DNA of 64,000 nucleotides from Patescibacteria group bacterium. Its GTDB lineage: Bacteria; Patescibacteriota; Patescibacteriia; Veblenbacterales; UBA10138. Below the pieces are notes generated by a model. The model was not told the origin of the DNA and did no database searches. It saw only the letters and a program-made list of their open reading frames with translations. The stretch lies in the NCBI GenBank assembly GCA_018817715.1, contig JAHITT010000004.1, forward strand, positions 19,751 through 83,750. The letters are read 5' to 3'. Positions 46,612 to 64,000 of the stretch are shown in pieces; the stretch's first letter is position 1; each line of letters opens with the position of its first letter. Made by a program: the position numbers and the translations under genes.

Positions 46612-47082
46612 CTAAAAATTAAGTTGCCAAATAGTAAAATTCAAATAAGCCGCAAACATTACCCAAACAGCATAAGGTGCCAATAAAACAGCAGCCAAAC
46701 GAGAAGTGCGACCAATTAAAATTATCAAATAAATAATGGAAAAAAATAACAACCAAATTTCTATGGCCGCCAGCCCTATCATTTGTTGCCCAAAAAATAA
46801 CCAACTCCAACCAACGTTTAAAAATCCGTTAAGTACTAGCATAACCAAAGTCAAACGAAAATTTTTATATCTAATCGATTGATTATAAAAAATTAAAACA
46901 GCCCCGGCTATCAAAATAAACAAAACTGTCCAGGCTAAGCCAATAAACCAACCCGGCGGAGTAAAATCGGGCTTAAGTAAATTTTGGTACCAAACCGTGT
47001 CGGGACTGGTAAACTGGCCGCCCCACCAAGCTACTAACCAAACCAACATCGGTATAACAAAATAATTAATTTTTAACTTCAT
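46612..47082 (-). CDS. tspO: TspO/MBR family tryptophan-rich membrane protein (start at internal Met; ORF track extends to 47157)
   Basis: WYQNLLKPDFTPPGWFIGLAWTVLF, Trp-rich, 5 TM. Confidence 0.65.
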   Translation of the reverse strand: MKLKINYFVIPMLVWLVAWWGGQFTSPDTVWYQNLLKPDFTPPGWFIGLAWTVLFILIAGAVLIFYNQSIRYKNFRLTLVMLVLNGFLNVGWSWLFFGQQMIGLAAIEIWLLFFSIIYLIILIGRTSRLAAVLLAPYAVWVMFAAYLNFTIWQLNF

Positions 47083-47157
47083 ATATACATAATGTCTTAT
47101 TTTACTACTAAAAGCAAAACCTCCTGTTAAATTATACAGGAGGTTTTTAATTACCAT

Positions 47158-50650: not shown

Positions 50651-50902
50651 CTAAAAATTGTCTTGAATTAATTTTTTAATTTTTTTAATATCCGAAGTAA
50701 AACCAACTAAAACAGCTTGGCCGTTCACCACTAAAACCGGACTTTGCATTAACCCAAAATCCAATATTCTTTGAAGATCCTTAATATATTCAACCGTTAC
50801 ACTTAAACCTAAGTCCTTAACAACCTGCTGCGTTAATTTATATAATTTTTGACAAGCTGGGCAACCAGAACCTAAAACCTGAATATTTTTTAAATTATTC
50901 AT
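50651..50902 (-). CDS. Thioredoxin-fold redox-active disulfide protein 2
   Basis: 83 aa, GSGCPACQ CxxC. Typical partner of DUF318 permeases. Confidence 0.7.
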   Translation of the reverse strand: MNNLKNIQVLGSGCPACQKLYKLTQQVVKDLGLSVTVEYIKDLQRILDFGLMQSPVLVVNGQAVLVGFTSDIKKIKKLIQDNF

Positions 50903-51813: not shown

Positions 51814-51888
51814 TCCGGGGTAGCTCAGTGGTAGAGCAGTTGGCTGTTAACCAATTGGTCGTGGGTTCGAGTCCCACCCCCGGAGCCA
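51814..51888 (+). tRNA. tRNA-Asn (anticodon GTT), CCA encoded; likely integration site
   Basis: TCCGGGGTAGCTCAGTGGTAGAGC...CTGTTAA...GGGTTCGAGTCCCACCCCCGGAGCCA. Confidence 0.85.
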
Positions 51889-53490
51889 GATAGGATTAAC
51901 ATCAGCGAAAGCTGGTGTTTTTCCTTTATTGACGGGCTCTTTTGGCGGTTCGAAAGTCTTTTTTTCGTCTATTTTTTCTCCCAACATCTCGATTACTCGG
52001 TTAGAGATGATTTTGAAGGCTTTCTGGTATGAAATCTCGATTTTCTTGCCATTTATGGTCGGGTTCGAAAATAAAAGGGACAATAATACTTTTTTGTCGT
52101 CGACCATGTCGAAGGTGCTTCGGTTTATGTAAATCTTTCTTGCATCCTTGGCCATTTGGAGAAATGTCGATCCCATATCGTAATACTTAAGGTTGGCATT
52201 TTTATGCTTGTTGAGGCTGTCCATCACTTCCTCCTGCTCAATCTTGTATTGCTGGTACTTTTTCTGATAGAAGTCCTCGCTGATTTTGCCGTCGATCTTG
52301 TCGTCATATATTTTATCTAGTCTCTGCGTGGCTACCTGGTAGCGTCGCTCGAGTTCGCCGGTAGCCTTTTCCCTGAATTCTATCTCCTCACCGTGGCTTT
52401 CCTTGAGAGCCTCTTGGACCCAAGTGAGCATATTCTCTATGGCTTCATCGTGATTAGAGCTCAAGAGCTCGATATTCTCCGTTACTTGTATATCGATATT
52501 TTCTTGCTTCACCCATTCTCTTTGTTTGCAATTTTTGTAATGGTTGCAGTGACCGTACCAATGACCTTTCTGTATCTCCCAAGTTATCCGACCCTTGCAT
52601 TCGTCACAGTGGAAGATGTTTTTGAACAGTGGGTTGTGCTTGTTATATTTTGGCGTCCCGTTGCTATGCATGATATCTTGGCACCGCATGAATAATTCTT
52701 TGGTGATCAGTGGCTCGTGTTCACCTTTGCCAACTTTGCCGTTCCAACGATTCATTCCGTAATAGAATGGATCACCGAGAAGCTGGTGGACTCGCGAGTG
52801 ACTCACTTTGTTGCCTCCTCGAGATCGCATACCGAGCCTGTACATTTCATCGGCAAGTTTCTTGGTCGAGCTTACGTTGGTGGCATAGAGGTCAAACATT
52901 TTCTTAACCATCGGTGCTTTGTCCTCATCTATCACATGGATTTTATGTCCTTTCTCACCAATCGTTTTATATCCGAGTGGTGGTTTGCTCGGCAACCATC
53001 CTTGAGCGAGTTTTTCTTTCTGGCCTTTCTTTACGTTTTCGGACAAAAGGCGGATGTAATATTCGGCCGTGGCCACTTTCACTCGCCACATAAACCATTC
53101 ATGCGACTTGGAGTCTTTGTGAAGCGTACATCCTTCTTTGACCAAGTGGATCGTATGCTTTTCGTCCGCTAGTATCCATTCGTCAATTACCGGCACATCG
53201 GCAAAATTACGGGTCAGGCGATCGGTTGTCTCCACGAAGACTGTATTGATCTTGGACTTGGTCACGTATTCCAACATTTCGTGAAATATTTTGCGCTGGA
53301 TTTTTCCAGCGGCCGACTCCTGAATGGCAAAAACCTTTACGAGCTCGTAGCCGTTGCGGTCGGCGTAGTCTCGCAAAAGTTTCTCTTGAGCCGGAAGCGA
53401 ATAGCCGGTGTCCTCCTGATCTTTGGAAGACACCCGGGCGTAGCCTACGGCTTGCATCGATTGATTTTCTTGATTCATTGTCATAATCAT
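51847..53490 (-). CDS. Large serine recombinase (resolvase-type catalytic domain, recombinase domain, zinc ribbon)
   Basis: AVGYARVSSKDQ catalytic Ser motif. The C-terminal 14 codons are read through the tRNA-Asn 3' half (…GWDSNPRPIG). Confidence 0.85.
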   Translation of the reverse strand: MIMTMNQENQSMQAVGYARVSSKDQEDTGYSLPAQEKLLRDYADRNGYELVKVFAIQESAAGKIQRKIFHEMLEYVTKSKINTVFVETTDRLTRNFADVPVIDEWILADEKHTIHLVKEGCTLHKDSKSHEWFMWRVKVATAEYYIRLLSENVKKGQKEKLAQGWLPSKPPLGYKTIGEKGHKIHVIDEDKAPMVKKMFDLYATNVSSTKKLADEMYRLGMRSRGGNKVSHSRVHQLLGDPFYYGMNRWNGKVGKGEHEPLITKELFMRCQDIMHSNGTPKYNKHNPLFKNIFHCDECKGRITWEIQKGHWYGHCNHYKNCKQREWVKQENIDIQVTENIELLSSNHDEAIENMLTWVQEALKESHGEEIEFREKATGELERRYQVATQRLDKIYDDKIDGKISEDFYQKKYQQYKIEQEEVMDSLNKHKNANLKYYDMGSTFLQMAKDARKIYINRSTFDMVDDKKVLLSLLFSNPTINGKKIEISYQKAFKIISNRVIEMLGEKIDEKKTFEPPKEPVNKGKTPAFADVNPIWLRGWDSNPRPIG

Positions 53491-53587
53491 TTAGTTAATA
53501 ATTTGTTGGTTCGAATGCGACTTTTCGTACCACGACACACCCTATACTAATTTTTTGGACAAGCTAAGCTCGAGTTGCCCACAGCAG

Positions 53588-54124
53588 TTATTCTCCGGTG
53601 TCGACCCACTTTTTTATTATTTCCGCTTTCGCATCGGGATACTGATTGCGTGCGAGTGCTAGTTGCATTTCATAAGGGATAAATTCCCAGCGATCACTTG
53701 GAGTCATCTCGCTGAAGTTGATCTTGTTTAGTTGAAGAGTTTCTTTTGGATGGCCCTCCACACGATCAAGTAGTTCTTTGATGGCCGCCAGTTTTACGTT
53801 ATCGTTTTGGCTTCCCATAAGCGCAACCAGCATCTCGTTGGCCAGACGAAAGTTTTGCTCACGAATACGCACACCGGCTTTCCGGACTATGTCCACAGTT
53901 TCCTGATGGATCGCATCCATTTCCTGTTCATACAACTCATAGGTTTCTCGTAGTGTTCCCGATTGTCTGAACCAGTCTTTGACCGTTTGCTCAGTGAATT
54001 TGGCTTTTCTACTTTTTTCAAACCGGTGATTGATATCCTCGGCAATGTTTTGGTAGGAATAGCCTTTATATTTCAGCTCAAGCGCGCGTTCGTGATATTT
54101 TGTTATGGTTTTCAACTTGGCCAT
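53588..54124 (-). CDS. Hypothetical protein with N-terminal HTH (terminase-small/sigma-like)
   Basis: GYSYQNIAEDIN. Lies on the integrated element. Confidence 0.35.
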   Translation of the reverse strand: MAKLKTITKYHERALELKYKGYSYQNIAEDINHRFEKSRKAKFTEQTVKDWFRQSGTLRETYELYEQEMDAIHQETVDIVRKAGVRIREQNFRLANEMLVALMGSQNDNVKLAAIKELLDRVEGHPKETLQLNKINFSEMTPSDRWEFIPYEMQLALARNQYPDAKAEIIKKWVDTGE

Positions 54125-54147
54125 AAAAGTGGGGTTTAGTGGAGTCC

Positions 54148-54339
54148 TTATTCCTTGATCGTGATGATGAGGAGTGCTCTGCCGGTTACCCGTTCGATGA
54201 TGTAAGCGGCCGCATGTGCTCGCACCTCAACATCTTTGGATTCCAGAAGCGAGATCAGAACTTTCGCCGCTTTTGGCAGATTCTTTTTGAGTATCTCGTC
54301 TGAGATTTCGACTTCCGTTTTCTTTTTATGCTTGCTCAT
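54148..54339 (-). CDS. Hypothetical small protein
   Basis: ORF track 63 aa. Confidence 0.3.
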   Translation of the reverse strand: MSKHKKKTEVEISDEILKKNLPKAAKVLISLLESKDVEVRAHAAAYIIERVTGRALLIITIKE

Positions 54340-54350
54340 AGGTGTGTTGG

Positions 54351-54938
54351 TTAGTAGTTACGTTTATGTCGGTTCGACGAGAACGACATCCTGGCGACAA
54401 GGTCGGCTTTCATCTGGTTTATTTTCTTGATCTGGTTTTGGCCGTTAACTTCTTTATAATTTTCTTTAATTTCTTTTAATCCCTTAGCTTCTATATCATC
54501 GCCGTCGGACGCAGTGTGCGTGTCATGCCGTTCGGCATTTCGTGCTGATCGGCCACCGTCCTGCTTCAGATGTAGGATGGATAGCAAAGTGATGCTTCGG
54601 GGTTTGAATTTGGCATCATCGCCTCGGATTTTTGTGATCGCGACAAAAGCCCACTCTTCGAGCTTGTCCAAACACTTCTTAATCGTTCGCCAATCTTTCA
54701 GGCCAGAGTAAAGCCGAAGCGTCTTGTTGGATGCTTCTATGGTCTGGCTCGCTTTGTTTGAAGCGATCTCGGTCAAAGCACAGTAGACATTACGCAGATT
54801 GCGATATGCATCGTCGCTTACATGCTTATCGAGCCACTGCTGACGCATAAACCGCAAAGCCGGTTTGTCTTGATAGGCAAACGGGGCTTCGCGGTAATCT
54901 CGGACCTTATACTTCTTGTCGCTTTGGTACATTGTCAT
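54351..54938 (-). CDS. Hypothetical protein (possible replication/wH protein)
   Basis: ORF track 195 aa. Confidence 0.35.
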   Translation of the reverse strand: MTMYQSDKKYKVRDYREAPFAYQDKPALRFMRQQWLDKHVSDDAYRNLRNVYCALTEIASNKASQTIEASNKTLRLYSGLKDWRTIKKCLDKLEEWAFVAITKIRGDDAKFKPRSITLLSILHLKQDGGRSARNAERHDTHTASDGDDIEAKGLKEIKENYKEVNGQNQIKKINQMKADLVARMSFSSNRHKRNY

Positions 54939-55206
54939 ATGGCTCTATGAGCGTTCGACCACTGGTGATGTCCTCGATGTAGAATCGCGACAAAGCATCG
55001 TAATAACTTACGAGATTGAATGCGATGTCGTGCAGGTCTTGGTCATTCACTTCCTGCCCGAAGTCTCTTTTGAGAATCACGCGGAGCTTCTCCAGCGTTT
55101 CCGGTTTTATTTTCACAGGTCTTAGTTCTCGGCGTAAATCCGTACCTTGACCTGTTTGACCTCGTTGAAGAACGCTTGAGGCTCGACTTGAAGCTCGCGG
55201 CTCCAA
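54907..55206 (-). CDS. Hypothetical small protein; N-terminus low complexity, real start probably internal
   Basis: Overlaps 55122-55364 in another frame. Confidence 0.25.
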   Translation of the reverse strand: MEPRASSRASSVLQRGQTGQGTDLRRELRPVKIKPETLEKLRVILKRDFGQEVNDQDLHDIAFNLVSYYDALSRFYIEDITSGRTLIEPYDNVPKRQEV

Positions 55207-55364
55207 TATCGCTTCACCAGAGAATCCAAGTCCGGGCTCTTGCCGAAGCAGAAGAGCACCTTGTGCGGATTTCCCCGATCCACGACCTCAAGAGAATCAG
55301 GAATAAATAATAAAAGCACCGCGACCAATGCCAGGTCGGCGGTTTTGTAGTAATTGTTTTCCAT
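55122..55364 (-). CDS. Hypothetical small protein
   Basis: ORF track 80 aa. Confidence 0.3.
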   Translation of the reverse strand: MENNYYKTADLALVAVLLLFIPDSLEVVDRGNPHKVLFCFGKSPDLDSLVKRYWSRELQVEPQAFFNEVKQVKVRIYAEN

Positions 55365-55527
55365 ATGTTGGCATTTTCATCGTCATTAACTTCCTCTCAC
55401 ACGCTTTTATTTTGGCAAACGAGTCGCTATGCCTTACATACTCCGCAAAGAAATTTGCGCAAACAAAAAACGCCCATTTTTCGGGCGTGCCGCTTAAGTT
55501 ATTAACACTACTTGAGGAATACGAGTG

Positions 55528-56208
55528 TCACCGCAGGAAAATTCTATATTCCGGATTGATCCGGTAGCCGTCGGTGCGACGACCCTCAATCAGTTTGCCG
55601 ATTTTCAAATCATTTTTAGCTTTGGCGTTTATTTTCATAATTGCCGAGCGTACCGAATAATCGCTTCCGGCTTCAGTAGCCATGCGGATATCTGGCGTGG
55701 TCTGGTAGGTTTTGCCGATCAGGTATTTCAGTATCCGATACCGGAGCAACTCTTTACCCATGTGGTAGCAGTATTTGCTTTTCGGATCACGGTACAGGTC
55801 GGCATCGGCCGACAAGTGGAGAATGGTCTGTTTAAGATCAGGTTTTGCTTTTCCTTGCGCAAAGTATTCGGCAAAAGAGATAGCCGCTTCACGTGCGAAT
55901 GTTTTTATAAAATGCTGATCATACTCGGTCAGTCCCTCAAACTTGCTCGTCCGGTGTTCCAAGAGGGACCGGATACTTTTGACCTCGAGCTTTGTTTCGA
56001 TTATTTCTCTGGTTAGATCACCGACGGCTGATTTGTTGTTCTGGATGATCTTATCCCCATCGGCTATACCAGCCGTTTTCATCGACGATCGGAGTATTTT
56101 CTCGGTGGTAACGATTGAGAGACGATAGGTTTGCGCCATCGTCACCGGTTTTCTGATATTGAATTTGTGCCTAGTGGCCAAAGAGGCCTTTTTCATTTTC
56201 ATACTCAT
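55528..56208 (-). CDS. Hypothetical DNA-binding protein (C-terminal winged-helix-like)
   Basis: 226 aa. Divergent from the 56395 gene across a 186-bp intergenic region. Confidence 0.35.
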   Translation of the reverse strand: MSMKMKKASLATRHKFNIRKPVTMAQTYRLSIVTTEKILRSSMKTAGIADGDKIIQNNKSAVGDLTREIIETKLEVKSIRSLLEHRTSKFEGLTEYDQHFIKTFAREAAISFAEYFAQGKAKPDLKQTILHLSADADLYRDPKSKYCYHMGKELLRYRILKYLIGKTYQTTPDIRMATEAGSDYSVRSAIMKINAKAKNDLKIGKLIEGRRTDGYRINPEYRIFLR

Positions 56209-56394
56209 TTTTGTACTGGAACGTAGCTTTAGCGTAACTTCCAGTTAAAGTTTAGTGAATAGAACCCGTTTTCTACTCTTCATTCACTACTAAGCAATTT
56301 TGCTTATTTGCCCATACCCATTGCTTTAATCCTAAGTATAGCATATAATGTAATCCATAAGTAACATTTTGCGTAACCTTTTAGATTATAACCT

Positions 56395-56991
56395 ATGACC
56401 CAGCGAATAGACATCATGAATACACTCCTCCGATCCAAGCAGTCAGTATTTACGTTCAAGGAAGTAAACTTGCTTGCTGGAGGTGAAATCAGCCCAGCTC
56501 TATTGCGACGCCGGGTGAGCTATTACATTCAAAAAGATCAACTGCATCCGCTTCGACGCGGCATTTATGCCAAAGATAAAAAATATGACAAATTCGAATT
56601 GGCAAATCGAATTTATACCCCCTCGTATATAAGCTTTGAGACTGTTCTCAGTCGAGCAGGTGTTATTTTTCAATCATACGGGCAAATATTTATTGCATCT
56701 TATCTTACACGCGAACTGAAAATTGATGACCAGATATATTCTTACAGAAAAATTAAGGACGACATCCTAATGAGAACTCAACTGCCTATAGGCATCGAAC
56801 ATAAAGGCACTTATTCCATTGCTACTCCTGAACGGGCATTTTTAGACGTGGTTTATCTTTCCAAAGATTATCACTTCGACAATTTGTCCGCTTTAAACTG
56901 GGAGAAGGTATTTGAGATTCTCCCAATTTTTGAAAATGTCGAGATGGAAAAACGGGTCAAGGCATATTACGAGCTGTTCAAGCATAGTTAA
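56395..56991 (+). CDS. AbiEi-like antitoxin/regulator N-terminal wHTH domain protein
   Basis: LHPLRRGIYAKD and TPSYISFETVLSRAGVI resemble the AbiEi family (L.RGvY ... PSYvSlesAL). Confidence 0.5.
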   Translation: MTQRIDIMNTLLRSKQSVFTFKEVNLLAGGEISPALLRRRVSYYIQKDQLHPLRRGIYAKDKKYDKFELANRIYTPSYISFETVLSRAGVIFQSYGQIFIASYLTRELKIDDQIYSYRKIKDDILMRTQLPIGIEHKGTYSIATPERAFLDVVYLSKDYHFDNLSALNWEKVFEILPIFENVEMEKRVKAYYELFKHS

Positions 56992-57022
56992 GCCTGAATC
57001 ATGAGTATGAAAATGAAAATGT

Positions 57023-59971
57023 ATGAAAATCACTGACCATCACGCAAAATACTTTGCCTACGAACTCACCAAGCGATGTCCATCGGACAGCTTGGAGAAA
57101 TTGTCGTCTACGCTTTCCAACGCACAAGTTGATCTTAATCCTCATCAGATAGAGGCGGCGCTGTTTGCATTTCGATCGCCACTCTCTAAAGGAGCTATCC
57201 TTGCTGATGAGGTTGGTCTTGGAAAAACAATTGAGGCAGGACTCGTGCTCTCGCAAAAATGGGCTGAAAGAAAACGAAAGATACTGCTTATCTTGCCCTC
57301 GAGTTTACGTAAGCAATGGAACGCTGAATTGCAAGAGAAATTCTTTTTGCCATCGATTATTTTAGAAGCAAAATCATTTAATCAGTATATTAACGGCGGT
57401 AACCTCAATCCATTCGAGCAGGAAGATGTGATCGTTATTTGCTCGTATCACTTCGCTCGATCAAAGGCGGCCTATATTAAAAAAATTAAATGGGACCTGG
57501 CAGTTATTGATGAAGCACACCGACTTCGTAATGTGTATAAAACCAACAATAAAATCGCTCGGGAAATTAAGAATGCACTCTCCGAAGTTCCGAAAATTCT
57601 TCTTACAGCAACACCACTTCAAAATTCACTGCTTGAGCTCTACGGATTAGTGAGCATCATTGATGATCATGTGTTCGGAGACCTTACGAGTTTTAAAGTG
57701 AACTATGCCCGTCTTTCACGTGAGCAGGACGTGTATGACGGCGAAGCTGGATTTGTTGAACCACGACAGGAGATGTTCATGGATTTACGCAACCGGCTCA
57801 AGCAGGTATGTACCCGAACACTTCGTAGGCAGGTTTTGGAGTATATAAAATATACCAAGCGTATCCCACTCACTCAGGACTATATTCCGACCGAAGATGA
57901 GATCCGGCTTTATGATGGCATGTCCGAATATCTGCAAAGACCCAAGCTTTTCGCATTGCCTTCCAGTCAACGACAGCTGATCACGCTTATCCTACGTAAG
58001 CTTCTCGCCTCATCGTCCTTTGCTATTGCCAGCACTCTCAACAGTTTGGTATTTAAACTTTCTGCGCTGATTGAGGAGGCCGAGAAAGCAAAAACAGTTA
58101 AGGAAACCGGTATCGCCGGACTCGAAGACAACTTTGAGAACCTTGAGGAAATATCGGACGAGTGGGTTGACGATGAAGAGAGTGATGAGGAGTCCGAAAA
58201 AGATGCGCCGAAAATAAAATACACCGACGAGGATATCGCGCTGATGAGGACGGAAAAAGCTGATCTGGAAAAATTCCGAGATATGGCCAAGAAGATTCTC
58301 AAGAACTCTAAAGGAGAGGCTTTACTTATTGCCCTCGAAAAAGGTTTTGAGATGACAAATAAGTTGGGAGCAAAAAAGAAAGCTATCATATTTACCGAGT
58401 CGACCATTACTCAGAATTACTTGTATTCCGATCTCCTTTCAAAGGGTGGGTATGACGGCAAAATAGTTCTCTTTAACGGATCGAACAACGACGATAAATC
58501 AAAGCAGATTTATGCCGACTGGATCAGGGTTAATAAAGACACGGATAAAATAACCGGCTCAAAAACCTCGGACATGCGCGCCGCGCTCGTTGACTACTTC
58601 CGTGATGAGGCGGAAATAATGATTGCGACCGAAGCGGCGGCCGAGGGCGTGAACCTCCAGTTCTGTTCACTGCTGATCAACTACGACCTCCCTTGGAACC
58701 CTCAGCGTATTGAACAGCGTATCGGCCGATGCCACCGTTACGGCCAGAAGCATGACGTTGTGGTTATTAACTTCGTGAACCGTAAAAATGCGGCCGATCA
58801 GCGTGTCTACGACCTGCTCGATCAGAAGTTCAGCCTGTTCAAGGGCGTATTCGGAGCAAGCGATGAAGTGCTTGGTGGCATCGAGTCCGGAGTTGATTTT
58901 GAGAAGCGTATCGCGGCCATTTATCAGTCGTGCCGAACCGAAGAAGAAATCACTGGTGCGTTTGATACCCTGCAAAAACAGATGGACGAGAGCATTCAAA
59001 ATAACCTCCGTGATACTCGTCAGAAATTGCTGGAAAACTTCGATGCGGAAGTACATGAAAAACTCAAAGTTAACCTTAAAGAAAGCAAGGCTTATCTGGA
59101 TACTTATACGAGCTGGCTTTGGGACGCCACAAAATATTATCTTGGCGATAACGCGGAGTTTGCGGAGCACGAATATTCATTCACGCTTAAAAATAATCCC
59201 TTCCCTAATGAGCAGATCGACCCGGGACCTTATAAGATTGGTAAAAATATAGACGACGCACATATTTATCGTCCTGGACATCCTCTAGCACAAAAGATTC
59301 TTGGCGAGATTAAAGCCAAGGTATTTGACGATGCTGAAATCACTTTTGACTACTCAAGCAACTCCACGATTATTTCTATTCTAGAACCTCTTGTCGGCAA
59401 GAGTGGTATTTTGAAAGTGTCCAATTATACCGTTGAGGCCTTTGAGGCCGAGGATGCGGTGGTTGTATCGGCTATTGATGAATCAGGAAATCCGGTAGAT
59501 GGAGAAATAGCTAAGAAACTTTTTTCTATCGCAGCTCAAACTGTGAAGACCGCCACACTTTCTCCGGAAGAGAAAACAAAGCTCGGCGAACTCGAAGACC
59601 AGACTGTTGGGATTGTTTCTACTCGAATTGCCGAGCGCAACAGCGAGTTTTTTGACAATGAGGTAGACAAGCTCGATAAGTGGGCGGAGGATATGAAAAA
59701 AGCTGTTGAGCTTGATCTCAAGAAGCTGGATGTTGACATTAAAATTTCCAAGACCAACGCCAAGAAAATCTTAAACCTCGATGAGAAATTGAAAGCCCAA
59801 CGAGGTATTAAGGATATGGAGAAGAAGCGCAATGAGATGCGCAAAAAGTTATATGAGGCTCAGGACGATGTGGAAGGCAGAAAAGAAAAACTTATCGGAG
59901 AAGTGGAGGCTCAATTGAAACAAAAATCAAAACTTGAGTCGCTGTTCACCATCCGGTGGAGAGTCGTTTAA
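57023..59971 (+). CDS. SNF2-family ATPase/helicase with acidic insertion and ~340-aa C-terminal coiled-coil extension
   Basis: Motif I LADEVGLGKTIEAG, motif II DEAHRLRN, motif III LLTATPLQNS, motif VI QRIGRCHRYGQ. Acidic DEWVDDEESDEESE stretch. Lys/Glu-rich heptad-like C-terminus. Confidence 0.85.
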   Translation: MKITDHHAKYFAYELTKRCPSDSLEKLSSTLSNAQVDLNPHQIEAALFAFRSPLSKGAILADEVGLGKTIEAGLVLSQKWAERKRKILLILPSSLRKQWNAELQEKFFLPSIILEAKSFNQYINGGNLNPFEQEDVIVICSYHFARSKAAYIKKIKWDLAVIDEAHRLRNVYKTNNKIAREIKNALSEVPKILLTATPLQNSLLELYGLVSIIDDHVFGDLTSFKVNYARLSREQDVYDGEAGFVEPRQEMFMDLRNRLKQVCTRTLRRQVLEYIKYTKRIPLTQDYIPTEDEIRLYDGMSEYLQRPKLFALPSSQRQLITLILRKLLASSSFAIASTLNSLVFKLSALIEEAEKAKTVKETGIAGLEDNFENLEEISDEWVDDEESDEESEKDAPKIKYTDEDIALMRTEKADLEKFRDMAKKILKNSKGEALLIALEKGFEMTNKLGAKKKAIIFTESTITQNYLYSDLLSKGGYDGKIVLFNGSNNDDKSKQIYADWIRVNKDTDKITGSKTSDMRAALVDYFRDEAEIMIATEAAAEGVNLQFCSLLINYDLPWNPQRIEQRIGRCHRYGQKHDVVVINFVNRKNAADQRVYDLLDQKFSLFKGVFGASDEVLGGIESGVDFEKRIAAIYQSCRTEEEITGAFDTLQKQMDESIQNNLRDTRQKLLENFDAEVHEKLKVNLKESKAYLDTYTSWLWDATKYYLGDNAEFAEHEYSFTLKNNPFPNEQIDPGPYKIGKNIDDAHIYRPGHPLAQKILGEIKAKVFDDAEITFDYSSNSTIISILEPLVGKSGILKVSNYTVEAFEAEDAVVVSAIDESGNPVDGEIAKKLFSIAAQTVKTATLSPEEKTKLGELEDQTVGIVSTRIAERNSEFFDNEVDKLDKWAEDMKKAVELDLKKLDVDIKISKTNAKKILNLDEKLKAQRGIKDMEKKRNEMRKKLYEAQDDVEGRKEKLIGEVEAQLKQKSKLESLFTIRWRVV

Positions 59972-59973
59972 TT

Positions 59974-60000
59974 CAGTTGTCCGGAATTTCCGGACAACTG
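59974..60000 (+). terminator. 27-nt perfect hairpin (13-bp arms) right after the SNF2 stop; terminator or operator
   Basis: cagttgtccggaa-t-ttccggacaactg followed by moderately U-rich gtagaattatt. Confidence 0.4.
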
Positions 60001-60029
60001 GTAGAATTATTAACAATTAACTTAAAATT

Positions 60030-60869
60030 ATGACAGAAAACAACAACAAACTCATCGCAATCTTTGAAGACCAGCCAGTACGCCGCACTTGGGATGGAAA
60101 GGCGGAAAAGTGGCTTTTTAGCGTCGTGGACATAGTCGGAATCTTGAGTCAGAGTGCTGACCCAAGGAACTACTGGAAAGTGCTAAAAAACCGTTTAAAT
60201 AAGGAAGGAAGTGAAGTGGTTACAAAATGTAACCAGTTGAAAATGCTAGCCCCAGACGGCAAGATGCGCGAAACCGATGCGGCAGACGTGGAGACAATAT
60301 TCCGCCTTGTGCAATCGGTGCCCTCTCCCAAAGCGGAGCCCTTTAAGCTTTGGCTCGCAAAGGTCGGTTATGAGCGCATGCAGGAAACAGTTGACCCTGA
60401 ATTGGCGGTAAGTCGCGGACGTAAAAATTGGCAGGCGATGGGACGAAGCCAGAAATGGATTGAGCAAAGGATGTTAAGCGTAGAGACTAGAAATAAACTG
60501 ACTGATTACTGGTCGGATCATGGAATCAAAAAAGGCGAGGAGTTCGCTAAGCTGACAAATATAATCCACCAAGAATGGAGCGGTCTTTCCGTAAAAAGTC
60601 ATAAAAATCTCAAGAACTTGAAGTCGCAGAACTTACGTGACCACATGAGTGAGGCCGAGATAATTTTTACCTCATTGGCTGAACTGTCCACACGGCAGAT
60701 TTCTGAAAAAGAAAAGTCGGAGGGTTACGGACAGAACGAAGTCGTGGCGCGAAAAGGCGGACAGATTTCCGGCAATGCACGCAAAGCCCTGGAGGAACAA
60801 ACTGGCAAAAAGGTCGTGAGCTCGGAAAATTTCTTGCCGACAAAAAAAGAACCAAAGAAGCTGAAATAA
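60030..60869 (+). CDS. Bro-N domain protein, DinD-like
   Basis: IAIFEDQPVRRTWDGKAEKWLFSVVDIVGIL matches the Bro-N core. Stop TAA at 60867-60869 abuts the ATG of the methyltransferase at 60871. Confidence 0.65.
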   Translation: MTENNNKLIAIFEDQPVRRTWDGKAEKWLFSVVDIVGILSQSADPRNYWKVLKNRLNKEGSEVVTKCNQLKMLAPDGKMRETDAADVETIFRLVQSVPSPKAEPFKLWLAKVGYERMQETVDPELAVSRGRKNWQAMGRSQKWIEQRMLSVETRNKLTDYWSDHGIKKGEEFAKLTNIIHQEWSGLSVKSHKNLKNLKSQNLRDHMSEAEIIFTSLAELSTRQISEKEKSEGYGQNEVVARKGGQISGNARKALEEQTGKKVVSSENFLPTKKEPKKLK

Positions 60870-60870
60870 T

Positions 60871-62457
60871 ATGACTAATAAAAAGCAAAAACTGGAGTTA
60901 ACGTGGATCGGCAAAGACGAAGAGCTCAAGCTTGAGCCGAGGATTTTGATTGAGGACCCGGACAAGTCCTACGGCGACAAGTCGGCCGAGAATATGCTCA
61001 TCCACGGCGATAACCTCCTCGCGCTCAAAGCCCTCGAGCAGGACTTCGCCGGACGTATTAAATGCATCTATATCGATCCTCCGTATAACACAGGCAGTGC
61101 GTTTGAACATTATGACGATAATCTTGAGCACTCCACATGGCTCAGCTTAATGAGACCAAGACTAGAGATTTTAAAGAACCTTTTGCATAAAGATAAGGGT
61201 AGTATTTGGATTTCAATTGATGCAGACGAAAGTCATTATCTGAAAGTACTTTGTGATGAGATTTTTGGAAGGTCTAACTTTATAGATGAAGTTATTTGGC
61301 AACGATCATATGCACCAATAAATTTAAAGAAAACATTTTCTAGAAATCACGACGCTATTTTAGTCTATGCAAAAAACAGTTCCGGTTTTGAATTAAATAA
61401 ACTAGAAAGATCAGAAAAATTAAATGATAGTTTTACTAATCCTGATAATGATCCAAGAGGACCTTGGGCATCAGGCCCCATACAAGTTGGACCGCGTGTT
61501 GAGTCTAGGGTTTATGAGATAAAAACTACAAATGGACGAGTTATTGTGCCGCCCCCACAAGCTTGTTGGAGATTCTCTGAGGAAAAATATAAAGAAATGG
61601 TTGCGGATAATCGGATATATTTTGGACCTAACGGGGACAATGTCCCCCGTGTAAAGAGATTTTTATCCGAAGTTAAAGACGGGGTTGTACCGATGACTCT
61701 TTGGTTAAGAGATGATGTTGGAGATAACCAAGAAGCAAAAAAAGAAATCAAGAAATTATTTACCGATGATGTCTTTGATACACCAAAGCCAGAACGTCTC
61801 ATAAAACGAATTCTTGATCTTGGTTCTAATAACGGAGATTGGGTTTTAGATTCTTTCCTTGGTTCCGGTACTACTTCCGCCGTGGGGCATAAAACTGGAA
61901 GGAAGCATATCGGAATTGAATTCGGCGATCATGCCGATACACATTGCTTACCTCGATTGAAAAAGGTTGTTGATGGTACTGATGGACTTAAACTCTCCGA
62001 AGAACTTGATTGGAAAGGTGGCGGTGGATTTAAGTTTTATAATCTTGCGCCGAGCCTGCTTCGCAAGGATTCTTTCGGCAACTTCGTGATCGATGAAAAC
62101 TATAACGCTAATATGCTGGCCGCGGCCATGTGCAAACATGAGGGTTTCAAATTCTATCCGGACGAAGCTCTTTACTGGAAGCATGGCAAGTCCACCGAGA
62201 CCGACTTCATTTTCGTAACCACCGGATTCATCACTGCCGAGCAGTTAGATAAGGTAAATAGCGAAATGAAAGCTGGCGAGAGTCTGCTTATTTGTGCCAA
62301 ATCATTCGCACCCGAATGCGAAAACCGTTTTGCTAATATCACGGTCAAGAAAATTCCACAGATGATCTTGGGCAAATGCGAATTCGCCAAGGATAACTAC
62401 GACTTGAACATCATCAAAGCCACGGAAGCGCAGGCGGAAGAATCTAACGAAGCCTAA
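60871..62457 (+). CDS. mod: DNA methyltransferase, Type III Mod-like (beta-class N6A/N4C)
   Basis: ELTWIGKDE N-terminus. DPPYNTG catalytic motif early in the protein. FxGxG AdoMet motif LDSFLGSGTT late. Confidence 0.8.
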   Translation: MTNKKQKLELTWIGKDEELKLEPRILIEDPDKSYGDKSAENMLIHGDNLLALKALEQDFAGRIKCIYIDPPYNTGSAFEHYDDNLEHSTWLSLMRPRLEILKNLLHKDKGSIWISIDADESHYLKVLCDEIFGRSNFIDEVIWQRSYAPINLKKTFSRNHDAILVYAKNSSGFELNKLERSEKLNDSFTNPDNDPRGPWASGPIQVGPRVESRVYEIKTTNGRVIVPPPQACWRFSEEKYKEMVADNRIYFGPNGDNVPRVKRFLSEVKDGVVPMTLWLRDDVGDNQEAKKEIKKLFTDDVFDTPKPERLIKRILDLGSNNGDWVLDSFLGSGTTSAVGHKTGRKHIGIEFGDHADTHCLPRLKKVVDGTDGLKLSEELDWKGGGGFKFYNLAPSLLRKDSFGNFVIDENYNANMLAAAMCKHEGFKFYPDEALYWKHGKSTETDFIFVTTGFITAEQLDKVNSEMKAGESLLICAKSFAPECENRFANITVKKIPQMILGKCEFAKDNYDLNIIKATEAQAEESNEA

Positions 62458-62458
62458 T

Positions 62459-64000
62459 ATGAATACTAAAGCACAAGCAATCAAAAATAGGTTAAGCCTC
62501 CGCAAGCCACAAGCGGATAGTTTGGAAATTCTAGAAAAACTAGCGGATGTTTTGGAGTTGAAAAAGGACGCAGATGTAGTCAGCGAGCTTTCCAAAGTGC
62601 GAGCCTTGTATCCAACATGCGCTGATTTTGAACGAGACTTTCCATCAGTTTGTTTTTCTTTGGCAACAGGTGTCGGCAAGACTCGGCTTATGGGTGCATT
62701 TATTTCCTATCTCTATGCCGCCAAAGGTGTAAAGAATTATTTTGTATTGGCTCCCAACCTTACCATTTACAACAAGCTCATCGATGATCTCTCAAATCCG
62801 CGAAGCCCTAAGTATGTTTTTCGTGGCATAAGTGATTTTGCCATAACAGCACCACGAATCATTACCGGTGATAACTATGCCGAAGCTCGCCAAAGCACTT
62901 TGTTTAAGGAGTCAGTAAAGATAAACATTTTCAATATCTCGAAGATCAATTCTGAAGTCCGTGGAGGCAAGGAGCCGAGGATCAAACGTCTTTCGGAATA
63001 CCTTGGCGAGTCATATTTCAATTATCTTTCCGAATTGCCAGACCTCGTACTTTTGATGGACGAGTCGCACCACTATCGAGCTGATTCTGGACTCCGAGCA
63101 ATCAATGAGCTCAAGCCAATTTTGGGTCTTGAACTCACCGCAACGCCAATCGATACTAAGGGCGTTAAATTTAAGAATGTTGTTTTTGATTATCCGCTTG
63201 CTCGAGCACTACAAGACGGTTTCGTAAAAGAACCGGCAGTCGCTACACGCCGCGATTTCAACCCTGACCAGTATCGCAACGATCCGAAAGAACTTGATCT
63301 TATAAAGCTTGAGGACGGAGTGCGTATTCACGAAGACACCAAGGTGGCTTTGGATATTTACGCTCGAGATAGCGGTAATCGTTTGGTTAGGCCGTTCGTG
63401 TTAGTTGTCGCTCGAGATACCGATCACGCCAAAGAGATTCGTGGCTTGATTGAGTCGGACCGGTTCTTTGAAGGCCGGTATACCGGCAAGGTGATGGAGA
63501 TTCATTCAAACCAGCGCGGTGAAGAAAAAGAGGAAAATGTACAGAGGCTCATTGATCTGGAAAAGCCGGAAAACCCGATTGAGATTGTTGTACATGTAAA
63601 TATGCTCAAAGAGGGTTGGGACGTTACTAATCTCTACACCATTATTCCTTTGCGTGCGGCCAACTCCCAGATTCTTACCGAGCAGACCATCGGCCGTGGT
63701 TTGCGATTGCCTTATGGCGCACGGACCGGCGTTGAAAAGGTAGACAAGCTCACCATCATCGCTCACGATCGTTTTCAGTCCATCGTGGATGCGGCCAATG
63801 ATCCAAACTCTATAATCCGACAGGAGAATATCATCGAGATTGATCCGGATGCGTTGCCGGAGGCGCAGGAGGTTATTACTGCTTCCTCGGTAATGGAAGA
63901 GGCACTAGCTCTCAAACGCACGGAGATTGCGACTATTGTAAATGAGGCGGATCGCCAAAAAGCGGGCTTGGTTTTAGAGGCCGAACAACTGATCACTGAA
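62459..64000 (+). CDS. res: DEAH-box helicase, Type III Res-like (or DISARM DrmA-like), truncated by window end
   Basis: ATG at 62459, 2 nt after the mod stop. Motif I LATGVGKTRL, motif II LLMDESHHY. The frame stays open to the end of the window. Confidence 0.7.
   Translation, partial: MNTKAQAIKNRLSLRKPQADSLEILEKLADVLELKKDADVVSELSKVRALYPTCADFERDFPSVCFSLATGVGKTRLMGAFISYLYAAKGVKNYFVLAPNLTIYNKLIDDLSNPRSPKYVFRGISDFAITAPRIITGDNYAEARQSTLFKESVKINIFNISKINSEVRGGKEPRIKRLSEYLGESYFNYLSELPDLVLLMDESHHYRADSGLRAINELKPILGLELTATPIDTKGVKFKNVVFDYPLARALQDGFVKEPAVATRRDFNPDQYRNDPKELDLIKLEDGVRIHEDTKVALDIYARDSGNRLVRPFVLVVARDTDHAKEIRGLIESDRFFEGRYTGKVMEIHSNQRGEEKEENVQRLIDLEKPENPIEIVVHVNMLKEGWDVTNLYTIIPLRAANSQILTEQTIGRGLRLPYGARTGVEKVDKLTIIAHDRFQSIVDAANDPNSIIRQENIIEIDPDALPEAQEVITASSVMEEALALKRTEIATIVNEADRQKAGLVLEAEQLITE

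Follow-up and report, generated by a model that had tools for sequence, protein, structure and literature searches.

The 64,000-nucleotide stretch of a Patescibacteria contig considered here (hereafter, the window) very probably contains the left part of a genomic island, an integrative element of 17,740 bp that its own large serine recombinase (LSR) inserted at the extreme 3′ end of the host gene for tRNA-Asn(GTT). The element extends from window position 51889 to window-equivalent 69628 (all element coordinates below are given in this way), with its left 12.1 kb (51889–64000) inside the window. This in-window part is recognized by a compositional shift, by its absence from a related genome, and by a remnant of the recombinase gene at the right junction, attR. 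A sequence-only reading of the window had proposed a GC-richer integrative element of more than 12 kb, its right end beyond the window, with a serine recombinase at the tRNA-proximal end in the attL layout and with the last recombinase codons antisense to the T-arm and acceptor of tRNA-Asn; the junctions, the composition, the comparison of the two genes, and an empty site in a relative without the insertion bear this out.

Element Boundaries and the Empty Site

The right part of the element was read from locus L001, a part of the 251.9-kb metagenome contig k141_1622344 (ENA ERZ27247128), which corresponds to window positions 50871–72457 and shows no difference from the window across the overlap. 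The right junction was found there via a tail remnant of the recombinase family (see below), and the empty site in locus L108 fixed attR at L001 18753–18758. The attL core GAGCCA (51883–51888), defined by comparison of attL, attR, and attB, comprises the last two acceptor bases of the tRNA, the discriminator, and CCA; the second copy, at attR, corresponds to window-equivalent 69623–69628, about 5.6 kb past the window end. In their short forms, attL reads ...CCCCCGGAGCCA|GATAGGATT and attR reads ...GCAGGGCGAGCCA|TAACAAAAGAC, the longer forms being ...gtcccacccccggagcca | GATAGGATTAACATC... and ...gttgagcagggcgagcca | TAACAAAAGACATCACC..., respectively, and only the 6 bp GAGCCA are common to both. 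Eleven further attL/attR pairs and consensus sequences reduce the minimal core of the whole family to GAGC, or GCTC when read on the recombinase strand. A direct repeat of the end of tRNA-Asn had been predicted beyond position 64000; it is present, but only as a 6-bp copy: a search of L001 for a 16–25-nt repeat of the tRNA 3′ end with up to three mismatches found none, and a generic repeat search returned chance pairs only. A short core and no long repeat are consistent with a serine recombinase, unlike the long repeats of tyrosine integrases.

The unoccupied site belongs to L108 (contig JBMORS010000043.1 of GCA_049319925.1), where both flanks are about 82% identical to those of the window and the nitroreductase is 90% identical. 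The sequence there is ...CCCCCGGAGCCA|TAACAAAAGAC (longer form ...gtcccacccccggagcca | TAACAAAAGACATCACC...), i.e., the same tRNA 3′ end is joined directly to the right-hand host flank, and integration leaves tRNA-Asn intact. The empty attB is CCCCCGGAGCCATAACAAAAGACATCACC, and the attP junction predicted for the excised element is GCAGGGCGAGCCAGATAGGATTAAC. Defined attL and attR, together with an unoccupied site in a relative, are the marks of a site-specific integrative element.

By composition, the element stands apart from its host in two measures. The GC content of 1-kb windows is 0.377 ± 0.029 in the host (n = 53) versus 0.430 ± 0.041 in the element (n = 17; Mann–Whitney p = 3.5e-6), returning to 0.37 near L001 18.5–19 kb, and the tetranucleotide correlation, r = 0.97 between host sequences, is 0.65–0.68 between host and element.

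Another candidate for attR, GGCCAG at L001 ~18664, was dropped in view of the tail remnant found in frame and of the empty site in L108. Two exact matches to the attB 20-mer in a metagenome collection were likewise rejected, both being located within unrelated coding sequences without a tRNA. Loci L003 (Logan SRR6514274, a separate assembly with an identical host flank) and L107 have host flanks in common with the window, yet both end at or before the junction and are uninformative. L003 ends in the middle of tRNA-Asn, its position 1 being window-equivalent 51839; such a break is expected if sample SRR6514274 holds more than one junction variant.

Recombinase Tail and Attachment Half-Sites

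The tRNA-Asn(GTT) gene, the host target that provides the B arm of attB, occupies 51814–51888 on the plus strand (ARAGORN; Rfam tRNA, 75.1 bits). The LSR gene in its integrated form lies at 51847–53478 on the minus strand (543 aa from the gene caller’s start; the full open reading frame (ORF), 51847–53490, encodes 547 aa), and its 3′ end overlaps the last 42 nt of tRNA-Asn. The last 13 LSR codons, WLRGWDSNPRPIG, with the stop (W-L-R-G-W-D-S-N-P-R-P-I-G-stop) are the reverse complement of the tRNA, antisense to CCA, the discriminator, the acceptor strand, the T-arm, and the anticodon loop, from which the TAA stop derives. Near-relatives of the LSR (87–93% identical) adjoin differing tRNA-Asn sequences and end differently (RDLDSNQ.., RG*DSNL.., RRQGSNL.., etc.). 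Hence, the tRNA body is host DNA and not element DNA, and the differing tRNA-derived tails place the crossover at the W-L codons, i.e., at the CCA/discriminator end. The tRNA-encoded part of the LSR consists of the last 11 codons after W-L, and all LSR homologues have a C-terminal ...P-I-W-L in common and diverge after it.

About a dozen family members end in a way that does not resemble a tRNA: W-L is followed by the tail x-x-W-(D/N)-(D/E)-F-R-T-x-x-W...P-E....Q-x-K-x-L-L. A hidden Markov model (HMM) of this tail, trained on 17 long tails from elsewhere in the family with the window element left out, matches L001 18752–18657 on the recombinase strand (E = 1.8e-8), directly inside the right junction. 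The remnant reads W-L-A-L-L-N-D-F-R-T-F-D-W-A-E-E-Y-K-Y-P-T-V-V-L-D-Q-M-K-G-L-L-A-K-Y-E-N-L-stop; thus, 37 codons that would continue the LSR ORF have been kept in frame and on the same strand at attR. The tail HMM also finds a remnant in 11 other integrated loci, always upstream of the recombinase and on its strand, which implies element sizes of 5–10.7 kb; in front of each remnant stand the core and, farther out, host DNA that usually contains a terminator hairpin.

The overlap between the LSR and tRNA genes is, thus, more than a matter of layout: it arises from an attP that, judging from attL, attR, and the remnant, would lie within the recombinase ORF, the free and integrated forms of the protein differing in their C-termini. 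In the free circle, ...P-I-W would be joined to the tail to give a recombinase of about 569 aa that ends in a disordered linker and a short helical tail, and integration would exchange the last 37 LSR codons for the 11 tRNA-encoded ones. In the AlphaFold model of a full-length homologue, P0037, residues 504–524 form a disordered linker followed by short helices at 526–552 with a predicted local distance difference test score (pLDDT) of about 52–76. The junction equivalent to W-L (A-L-L-L in P0037) coincides with the end of this linker, so that the DNA signals near the core fall in the least constrained part of the protein.

The two kinds of half-site are best compared on the recombinase strand. 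In the tRNA (B) arm, GCTC-CGGGGG-TGGGAC-TCGAAC, the outer TCGAAC starts 12 nt after GCTC, as it does in 45/45 tRNA arms. In the P-arm consensus, GCTC-GCcCGa-TGGGAC-GATTT-TCGAAC, the distance from GCTC to TCGAAC is 17 nt; the P arm of the window element is GCTC-GCCCTG-CTCAAC-GATTT-TCGAAC. Relative to the tRNA arm, the consensus P arm has its inner TGGGAC in register and its outer TCGAAC shifted by 5 bp. In serine integrases, the recombinase domain binds the same positions in attP and attB, and the motif for the zinc-ribbon domain, at half-site positions 16–24 in attP, is 5 bp nearer the centre in attB (PMC3783163). As far as the sequences tell, the short common core and the 5-bp shift of the outer motif are those of LSR attachment sites and fit this model. 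The T-loop sequence TCGAAC would then serve as the recognition motif of the zinc-ribbon domain, the 5-bp offset telling attB from attP, and the likeness of W-D-S-N in the integrated protein to W-D-D-F-R-T in the free one is due to half-site mimicry at the DNA level.

A further conserved sequence is the heptamer GTTCGAA at 51948–51954, which reads TTCGAAC in the direction of the recombinase gene and supplies its codons F-E-P. The distance between heptamer and core is constant, being exactly 61 nt in 40/45 loci. TTCGAAC is used in 68/76 loci, though TTT is the commoner Phe codon. The heptamer lies too far from the core for a canonical half-site; together with a nearby GAGCC it resembles an inverted mimic of the tRNA 3′ end and could be an accessory site.

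The element end also bears a hairpin. A terminator scan detected AACATCAGC-GAAA-GCTGGTGTT followed by the T-run TTTCCTTTAT at 51898–51929 on the plus strand, 9 nt after the tRNA. It is located within the LSR coding sequence, which runs on the opposite strand and there encodes K-T-P-A-F-A-D-V. The empty site has a hairpin with a T-run, ACATCAC-cttgc-GTGGTGT-TTTTT, 10 nt after the tRNA, and the same sequence is found at attR of the window element. Equivalent hairpins in 42 distinct relatives have a mean z of −4.2 against shuffled sequences (z below −2 in 81%), with stems that differ in sequence, e.g., GAGCAGAGC/GCTCTGCTT and GAACGGACG/CGTCCGTT. RNAalifold found no consensus structure for 32 element-side sequences because the hairpins stand in slightly different registers. 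The element hairpin is probably a replacement intrinsic terminator for tRNA-Asn, the host terminator having been displaced to attR.

Since the tRNA half-site would remain intact after integration, a newcomer could insert again beside the tRNA, giving rise to tandem arrays in which the older recombinase would take the newcomer’s P arm as its new tail. In L109 (10001–18656), an older recombinase with a non-tRNA tail is followed by a 5-kb element whose recombinase enters an intron-split tRNA-Asn, and related array patterns occur in L051 (2210–3770), L048 (1087–1180 and 11573–11674), L077 (992 and 3052), and L024. Owing to such tail donation, a long tail on a chromosomal contig is no proof of a free element; the idea that long-tailed recombinases represent free forms was given up, several of them being older members of tandem arrays.

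As for the significance of the two tails, it is conceivable, if rather doubtful, that the C-terminus records the free or integrated state and that the cell or the element exploits the tail difference to control which way, or how much, recombination proceeds; this would be a self-contained integration-dependent switch acting alongside the tRNA-mimicking attP arm and the regenerating target that stacks elements. A slightly better than even chance is given to the tail swap being a neutral by-product: the LSR would act in the same way with or without the 37 residues, attP having drifted into a dispensable 3′ end and conservation of the tail being due solely to selection for the P half-site as DNA. 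Indeed, W-D-D-F-R-T, the best-conserved residues of the tail, are encoded by the P-arm motif TGGGAC-GATTT-TCGAAC, the tail comes after a disordered linker and is modelled at a pLDDT of just 52–76, and the tRNA-encoded replacements vary, some being cut by stop codons to 2 residues. Neutrality does not readily explain, however, why W at +11, P-E at +18/19, and Q-x-K-x-L-L at +24 to +29 are conserved beyond the half-site of about 25 bp. Located more than 30 bp from the core, these positions suggest selection on the peptide, and their conservation indirectly argues for a functional tail. Moreover, the remnants of 12/12 integrated elements are free of internal stops and similar in length, a count biased by similarity-based detection.

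The Recombinase Family and Known Systems

The LSR of the window matches Pfam Resolvase (85.4 bits, cutoff 23.3) and Recombinase (63.3 bits), and, below the cutoffs, the XisF and CcrB-like families of NCBIfam. In an alignment of 43 sequences, R15, S17, and S18 are invariant, as befits an LSR catalytic domain; C291, C294, and C317 are invariant as well, and H310 and C311 nearly so. The P0037 model (mean pLDDT 81.6) comprises catalytic, recombinase, zinc-ribbon, and coiled-coil domains plus an extra C-terminal domain; in this homologue of the window LSR, beta strands at 293–315 are followed by long helices at 329–427. In the model, a recombinase domain and a zinc ribbon with an inserted coiled coil are thus the features of an LSR.

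Database homologues of the LSR number 2,439. In species-representative genomes, a scan detected at least 484 family loci, of which the best 80 were examined; nearly all of these are labelled Patescibacteria. According to ARAGORN, the recombinase 3′ end is overlapped on the opposite strand by tRNA-Asn(GTT) in 44/80 loci, by tRNA-Gln in 5 (a clade 43–45% identical to the window LSR), and by tRNA-Leu in 1; no tRNA was called at the recombinase end in 29/80, and one further locus received a ‘tRNA-Stop’. The latter type of call was seen at L009 (1745–1919), where a 93%-identical recombinase with a frameshifted 3′ end lies beside a 79-nt ‘tRNA-Stop(tta)’, probably a mis-called tRNA-Asn. Seven of these 29, in which the recombinase tail still resembled a tRNA, were scanned with Rfam; 6 proved to have a group I intron right after the tRNA 3′ exon, so that in at least 6 further loci the target is an intron-split tRNA-Asn.

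The nature of the whole region has also to be weighed against two other explanations. Large serine recombinases are common as phage integrases, the Bro-N protein of the element matches a PHROG family, and a distant family member (L111) stands on a contig with Phage_rep_O and repressor-like genes, so a prophage or phage satellite might be supposed instead of a non-viral island. This is improbable: the 16 element genes, searched with Pfam, NCBIfam, and PHROG, include no capsid, portal, tail, or lysis match, the sole packaging-related one being a weak terminase match of a 63-aa ORF (p63, E = 8e-4); relatives in a viral contig collection are at most 41% identical, and the attachment sequences of the element are absent from that collection. 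That the region is an ancestral immobile chromosome segment, the ORF–tRNA overlap being a chance read-through, can be given very little credence. No circular form was detected and no transfer genes are recognisable, as would suit an immobile segment, but the site is empty in L108, the composition is sharply different, the backbone is 88% identical in DNA across metagenome-assembled genomes (MAGs) labelled as different Patescibacteria lineages, and the same overlap in the same frame recurs in most of the 80 loci examined.

A number of observations weigh against an island mobilized by its own LSR, the interpretation preferred here. The empty site comes from a relative with about 82% identical flanks and not from the same strain, and the gene upstream of tRNA-Asn differs between L108 and the window. 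The crossover dinucleotide is placed no more exactly than within GAGC, the symmetry between the P′ and P arms is low (10/28 positions at best), and the activity of the window recombinase is a prediction. Exact-match scans of the viral contig collection with the predicted attP and P′ arm found no excised circle, and 26 whole-contig loci tested for terminal repeats had none. Finally, no directionality factor, replication gene, or transfer gene was recognised among the element genes. Pfam, NCBIfam, and PHROG gave no match to a relaxase, a coupling protein, or type IV secretion in the 16 genes, which sets the element apart from integrative conjugative and integrative mobilizable elements (ICEs and IMEs).

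An LSR-borne element is of a known kind; what is unusual is the tRNA 3′-end target, the predicted attP in the integrase gene, the probable antisense terminator, and the spread in Patescibacteria. With the A118/LI, Bxb1, phiC31, and TP901-1 integrases (PMC3783163), the family has in common the catalytic, recombinase, zinc-ribbon, and coiled-coil domains, a very short core, and a 5-bp offset of the outer motif between attB and attP. Serine integrases are described as usually integrating within ORFs, tyrosine integrases at tRNAs (PMC9303363). In contrast to the four integrases named, the window element targets the last bases of a tRNA gene and not an ORF, has a predicted attP inside its own integrase coding sequence and a probable replacement terminator on the strand opposite to the integrase gene, and resides in Patescibacteria. 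In mycobacteriophage BPs and its relatives, the 3′ portion of a phage gene contains attP, and the integrated and free proteins differ at the C-terminus; that gene encodes the repressor, integration is carried out by a tyrosine recombinase, and the change of C-terminus controls stability via an ssrA-like tag (PMC4557955). The position of attP and the two C-termini are alike in both systems, but the gene concerned here is that of the serine recombinase itself, whose C-terminal difference is predicted from the junction sequences.

Archaeal integrases of the SSV1 type are tyrosine recombinases that also have attP within the integrase gene and a tRNA gene as the target. SSV integration splits the integrase gene into two non-functional parts, whereas the exchange here would be confined to the last 37 codons, and every recognisable domain remains in a single ORF. 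In streptococcal ICE/IME arrays, tandem accretion at tRNA sites involves tyrosine recombinases and long direct repeats. The regenerated target half-site and the tandem accumulation (L109, L051, L048) are similar, but unlike in those arrays, the newcomer here also donates its P arm as the C-terminus of the older recombinase. Full-text searches of an incomplete library found no description of the recombinase family, which may nonetheless have been described before.

Patescibacteria have tiny genomes and few described mobile elements, and the family occurs in hundreds of species-level genomes; defence cargo and near-identical backbones in MAGs labelled as different lineages make it a plausible route of gene flow and defence-gene exchange among these bacteria. 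The attB, attP, attL, and attR sites can all be read straight from genomes, and the target is the universally conserved end of a tRNA. The family is also a source of many new pairs of integrases and attachment sites for genome engineering. The tRNA-mimicking attP arm with its predicted 5-bp offset is a natural test of the site-discrimination model, and the attP-in-gene layout raises the question of whether a serine integrase can sense its own integration state.

Several Patescibacteria genomes have a group I intron (Rfam RF00028, 55–86 bits) that interrupts the anticodon loop of tRNA-Asn(GTT), as in L108 (957–1560), L011 (11640–12032), L015 (11639–11923), L018 (11630–11914), L040 (11624–11820), L041 (3730–3926), L043 (11633–11933), and L109 (~18560 onward). 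The L108 intron bears an HNH endonuclease ORF (1023–1343); the window tRNA-Asn is without an intron. In intron-bearing hosts, the recombinase ORF continues into the intron, which yields extra-long ‘proteins’ such as P0002. Recombinase relatives that are 45–52% identical were seen in L057, L059, L061, L063, L069, and several loci labelled Gammaproteobacteria/Pseudomonadales; they come from MAGs labelled archaea, Bacteroidota, or Proteobacteria, and some are long-tailed without a tRNA. These occurrences outside Patescibacteria may reflect mis-binning, loose labels, or a truly wider range.

Backbone and Cargo Genes

The LSR and five small genes next to it, all on the minus strand, form a conserved backbone (small genes at 53588–56196) whose order is kept beside the recombinase in 5–50 related loci; about 3.6 kb of it is 88% identical in DNA to L006 and L028, from MAGs labelled Harrisonbacteria and Paceibacterota. 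No family match was obtained for p178 (53588–54124), p195 (54351–54938), and p222 (55528–56196). The p63 gene (54148–54339) has the weak match to a small-terminase PHROG mentioned above, and the gene at 55122–55364 (DUF5659) is the sole small backbone gene with a family match. All five are candidate regulators or directionality factors. Of the small regulatory or replication-like ORFs seen by the sequence-only reading, the small ORFs are there, as candidate regulators, but no replication-like function could be assigned to them.

The restriction and helicase genes that it had also listed were recovered by Pfam and by PADLOC, which was used for the defence calls, and would make the cargo one of anti-phage defence, with type III restriction–modification, an SNF2 helicase, a Bro-N protein, and an AbiEi-like protein, all encoded on the plus strand. 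The AbiEi-like protein (56395–56991; PADLOC AbiEi, 203 bits) is followed by a DrmD-like SNF2-family helicase (57023–59971; Pfam SNF2-rel_dom and Helicase_C; PADLOC DrmD, 697 bits) and by a Bro-N domain protein (60030–60869; Pfam, PADLOC, and PHROG), which PADLOC lists as the candidate PDC-S13. The type III Mod methyltransferase (60871–62457; Pfam N6_N4_Mtase; PADLOC MTase_III, 627 bits) and the 883-aa Res (62459–65110, in the window to 64000; PADLOC REase_III, 637 bits for the full protein; Pfam ResIII and a C-terminal endonuclease-like domain) are adjacent and on the same strand, as expected of a type III restriction–modification system. Two other systems were considered and rejected: DISARM, as the SNF2 protein, with its match to DrmD, is the sole component present and the element has no DrmA, DrmB, or DrmC, and the AbiE toxin–antitoxin, as the AbiEi-like protein is without AbiEii, the downstream gene being the SNF2 helicase. 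Cargo varies among elements: the same SNF2, Bro-N, Mod, and Res cassette was found only in L012, and other family elements often bear methylases or restriction genes.

Directly after the type III Res, a 753-aa ORF (65112–67373; L001 14242–16503; plus strand) has a GC content of 0.29–0.35, far below that of the remaining element. Pfam gives just three weak matches to this ORF, all of them sub-cutoff (the best to DUF2254, E = 8e-5), and PHROGs, NCBIfam, and PADLOC give none above cutoff; the ORF was probably acquired as cargo in a separate event. The remaining genes, also on the plus strand, are a 102-aa ORF (67411–67719) and 51-aa and 155-aa ORFs (68745–69381), all without a family match, and, between them, a TspO fusion (67722–68732; L001 16852–17862; Pfam TspO_MBR) with a Cys-rich C-terminal extension. 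The latter is a second copy, a host TspO gene being present at window 46612–47157 on the minus strand. Elsewhere in the host part of the window, an AdoCbl (cobalamin) riboswitch (Rfam RF01482, 66.4 bits) is located at 1316–1471 on the minus strand.

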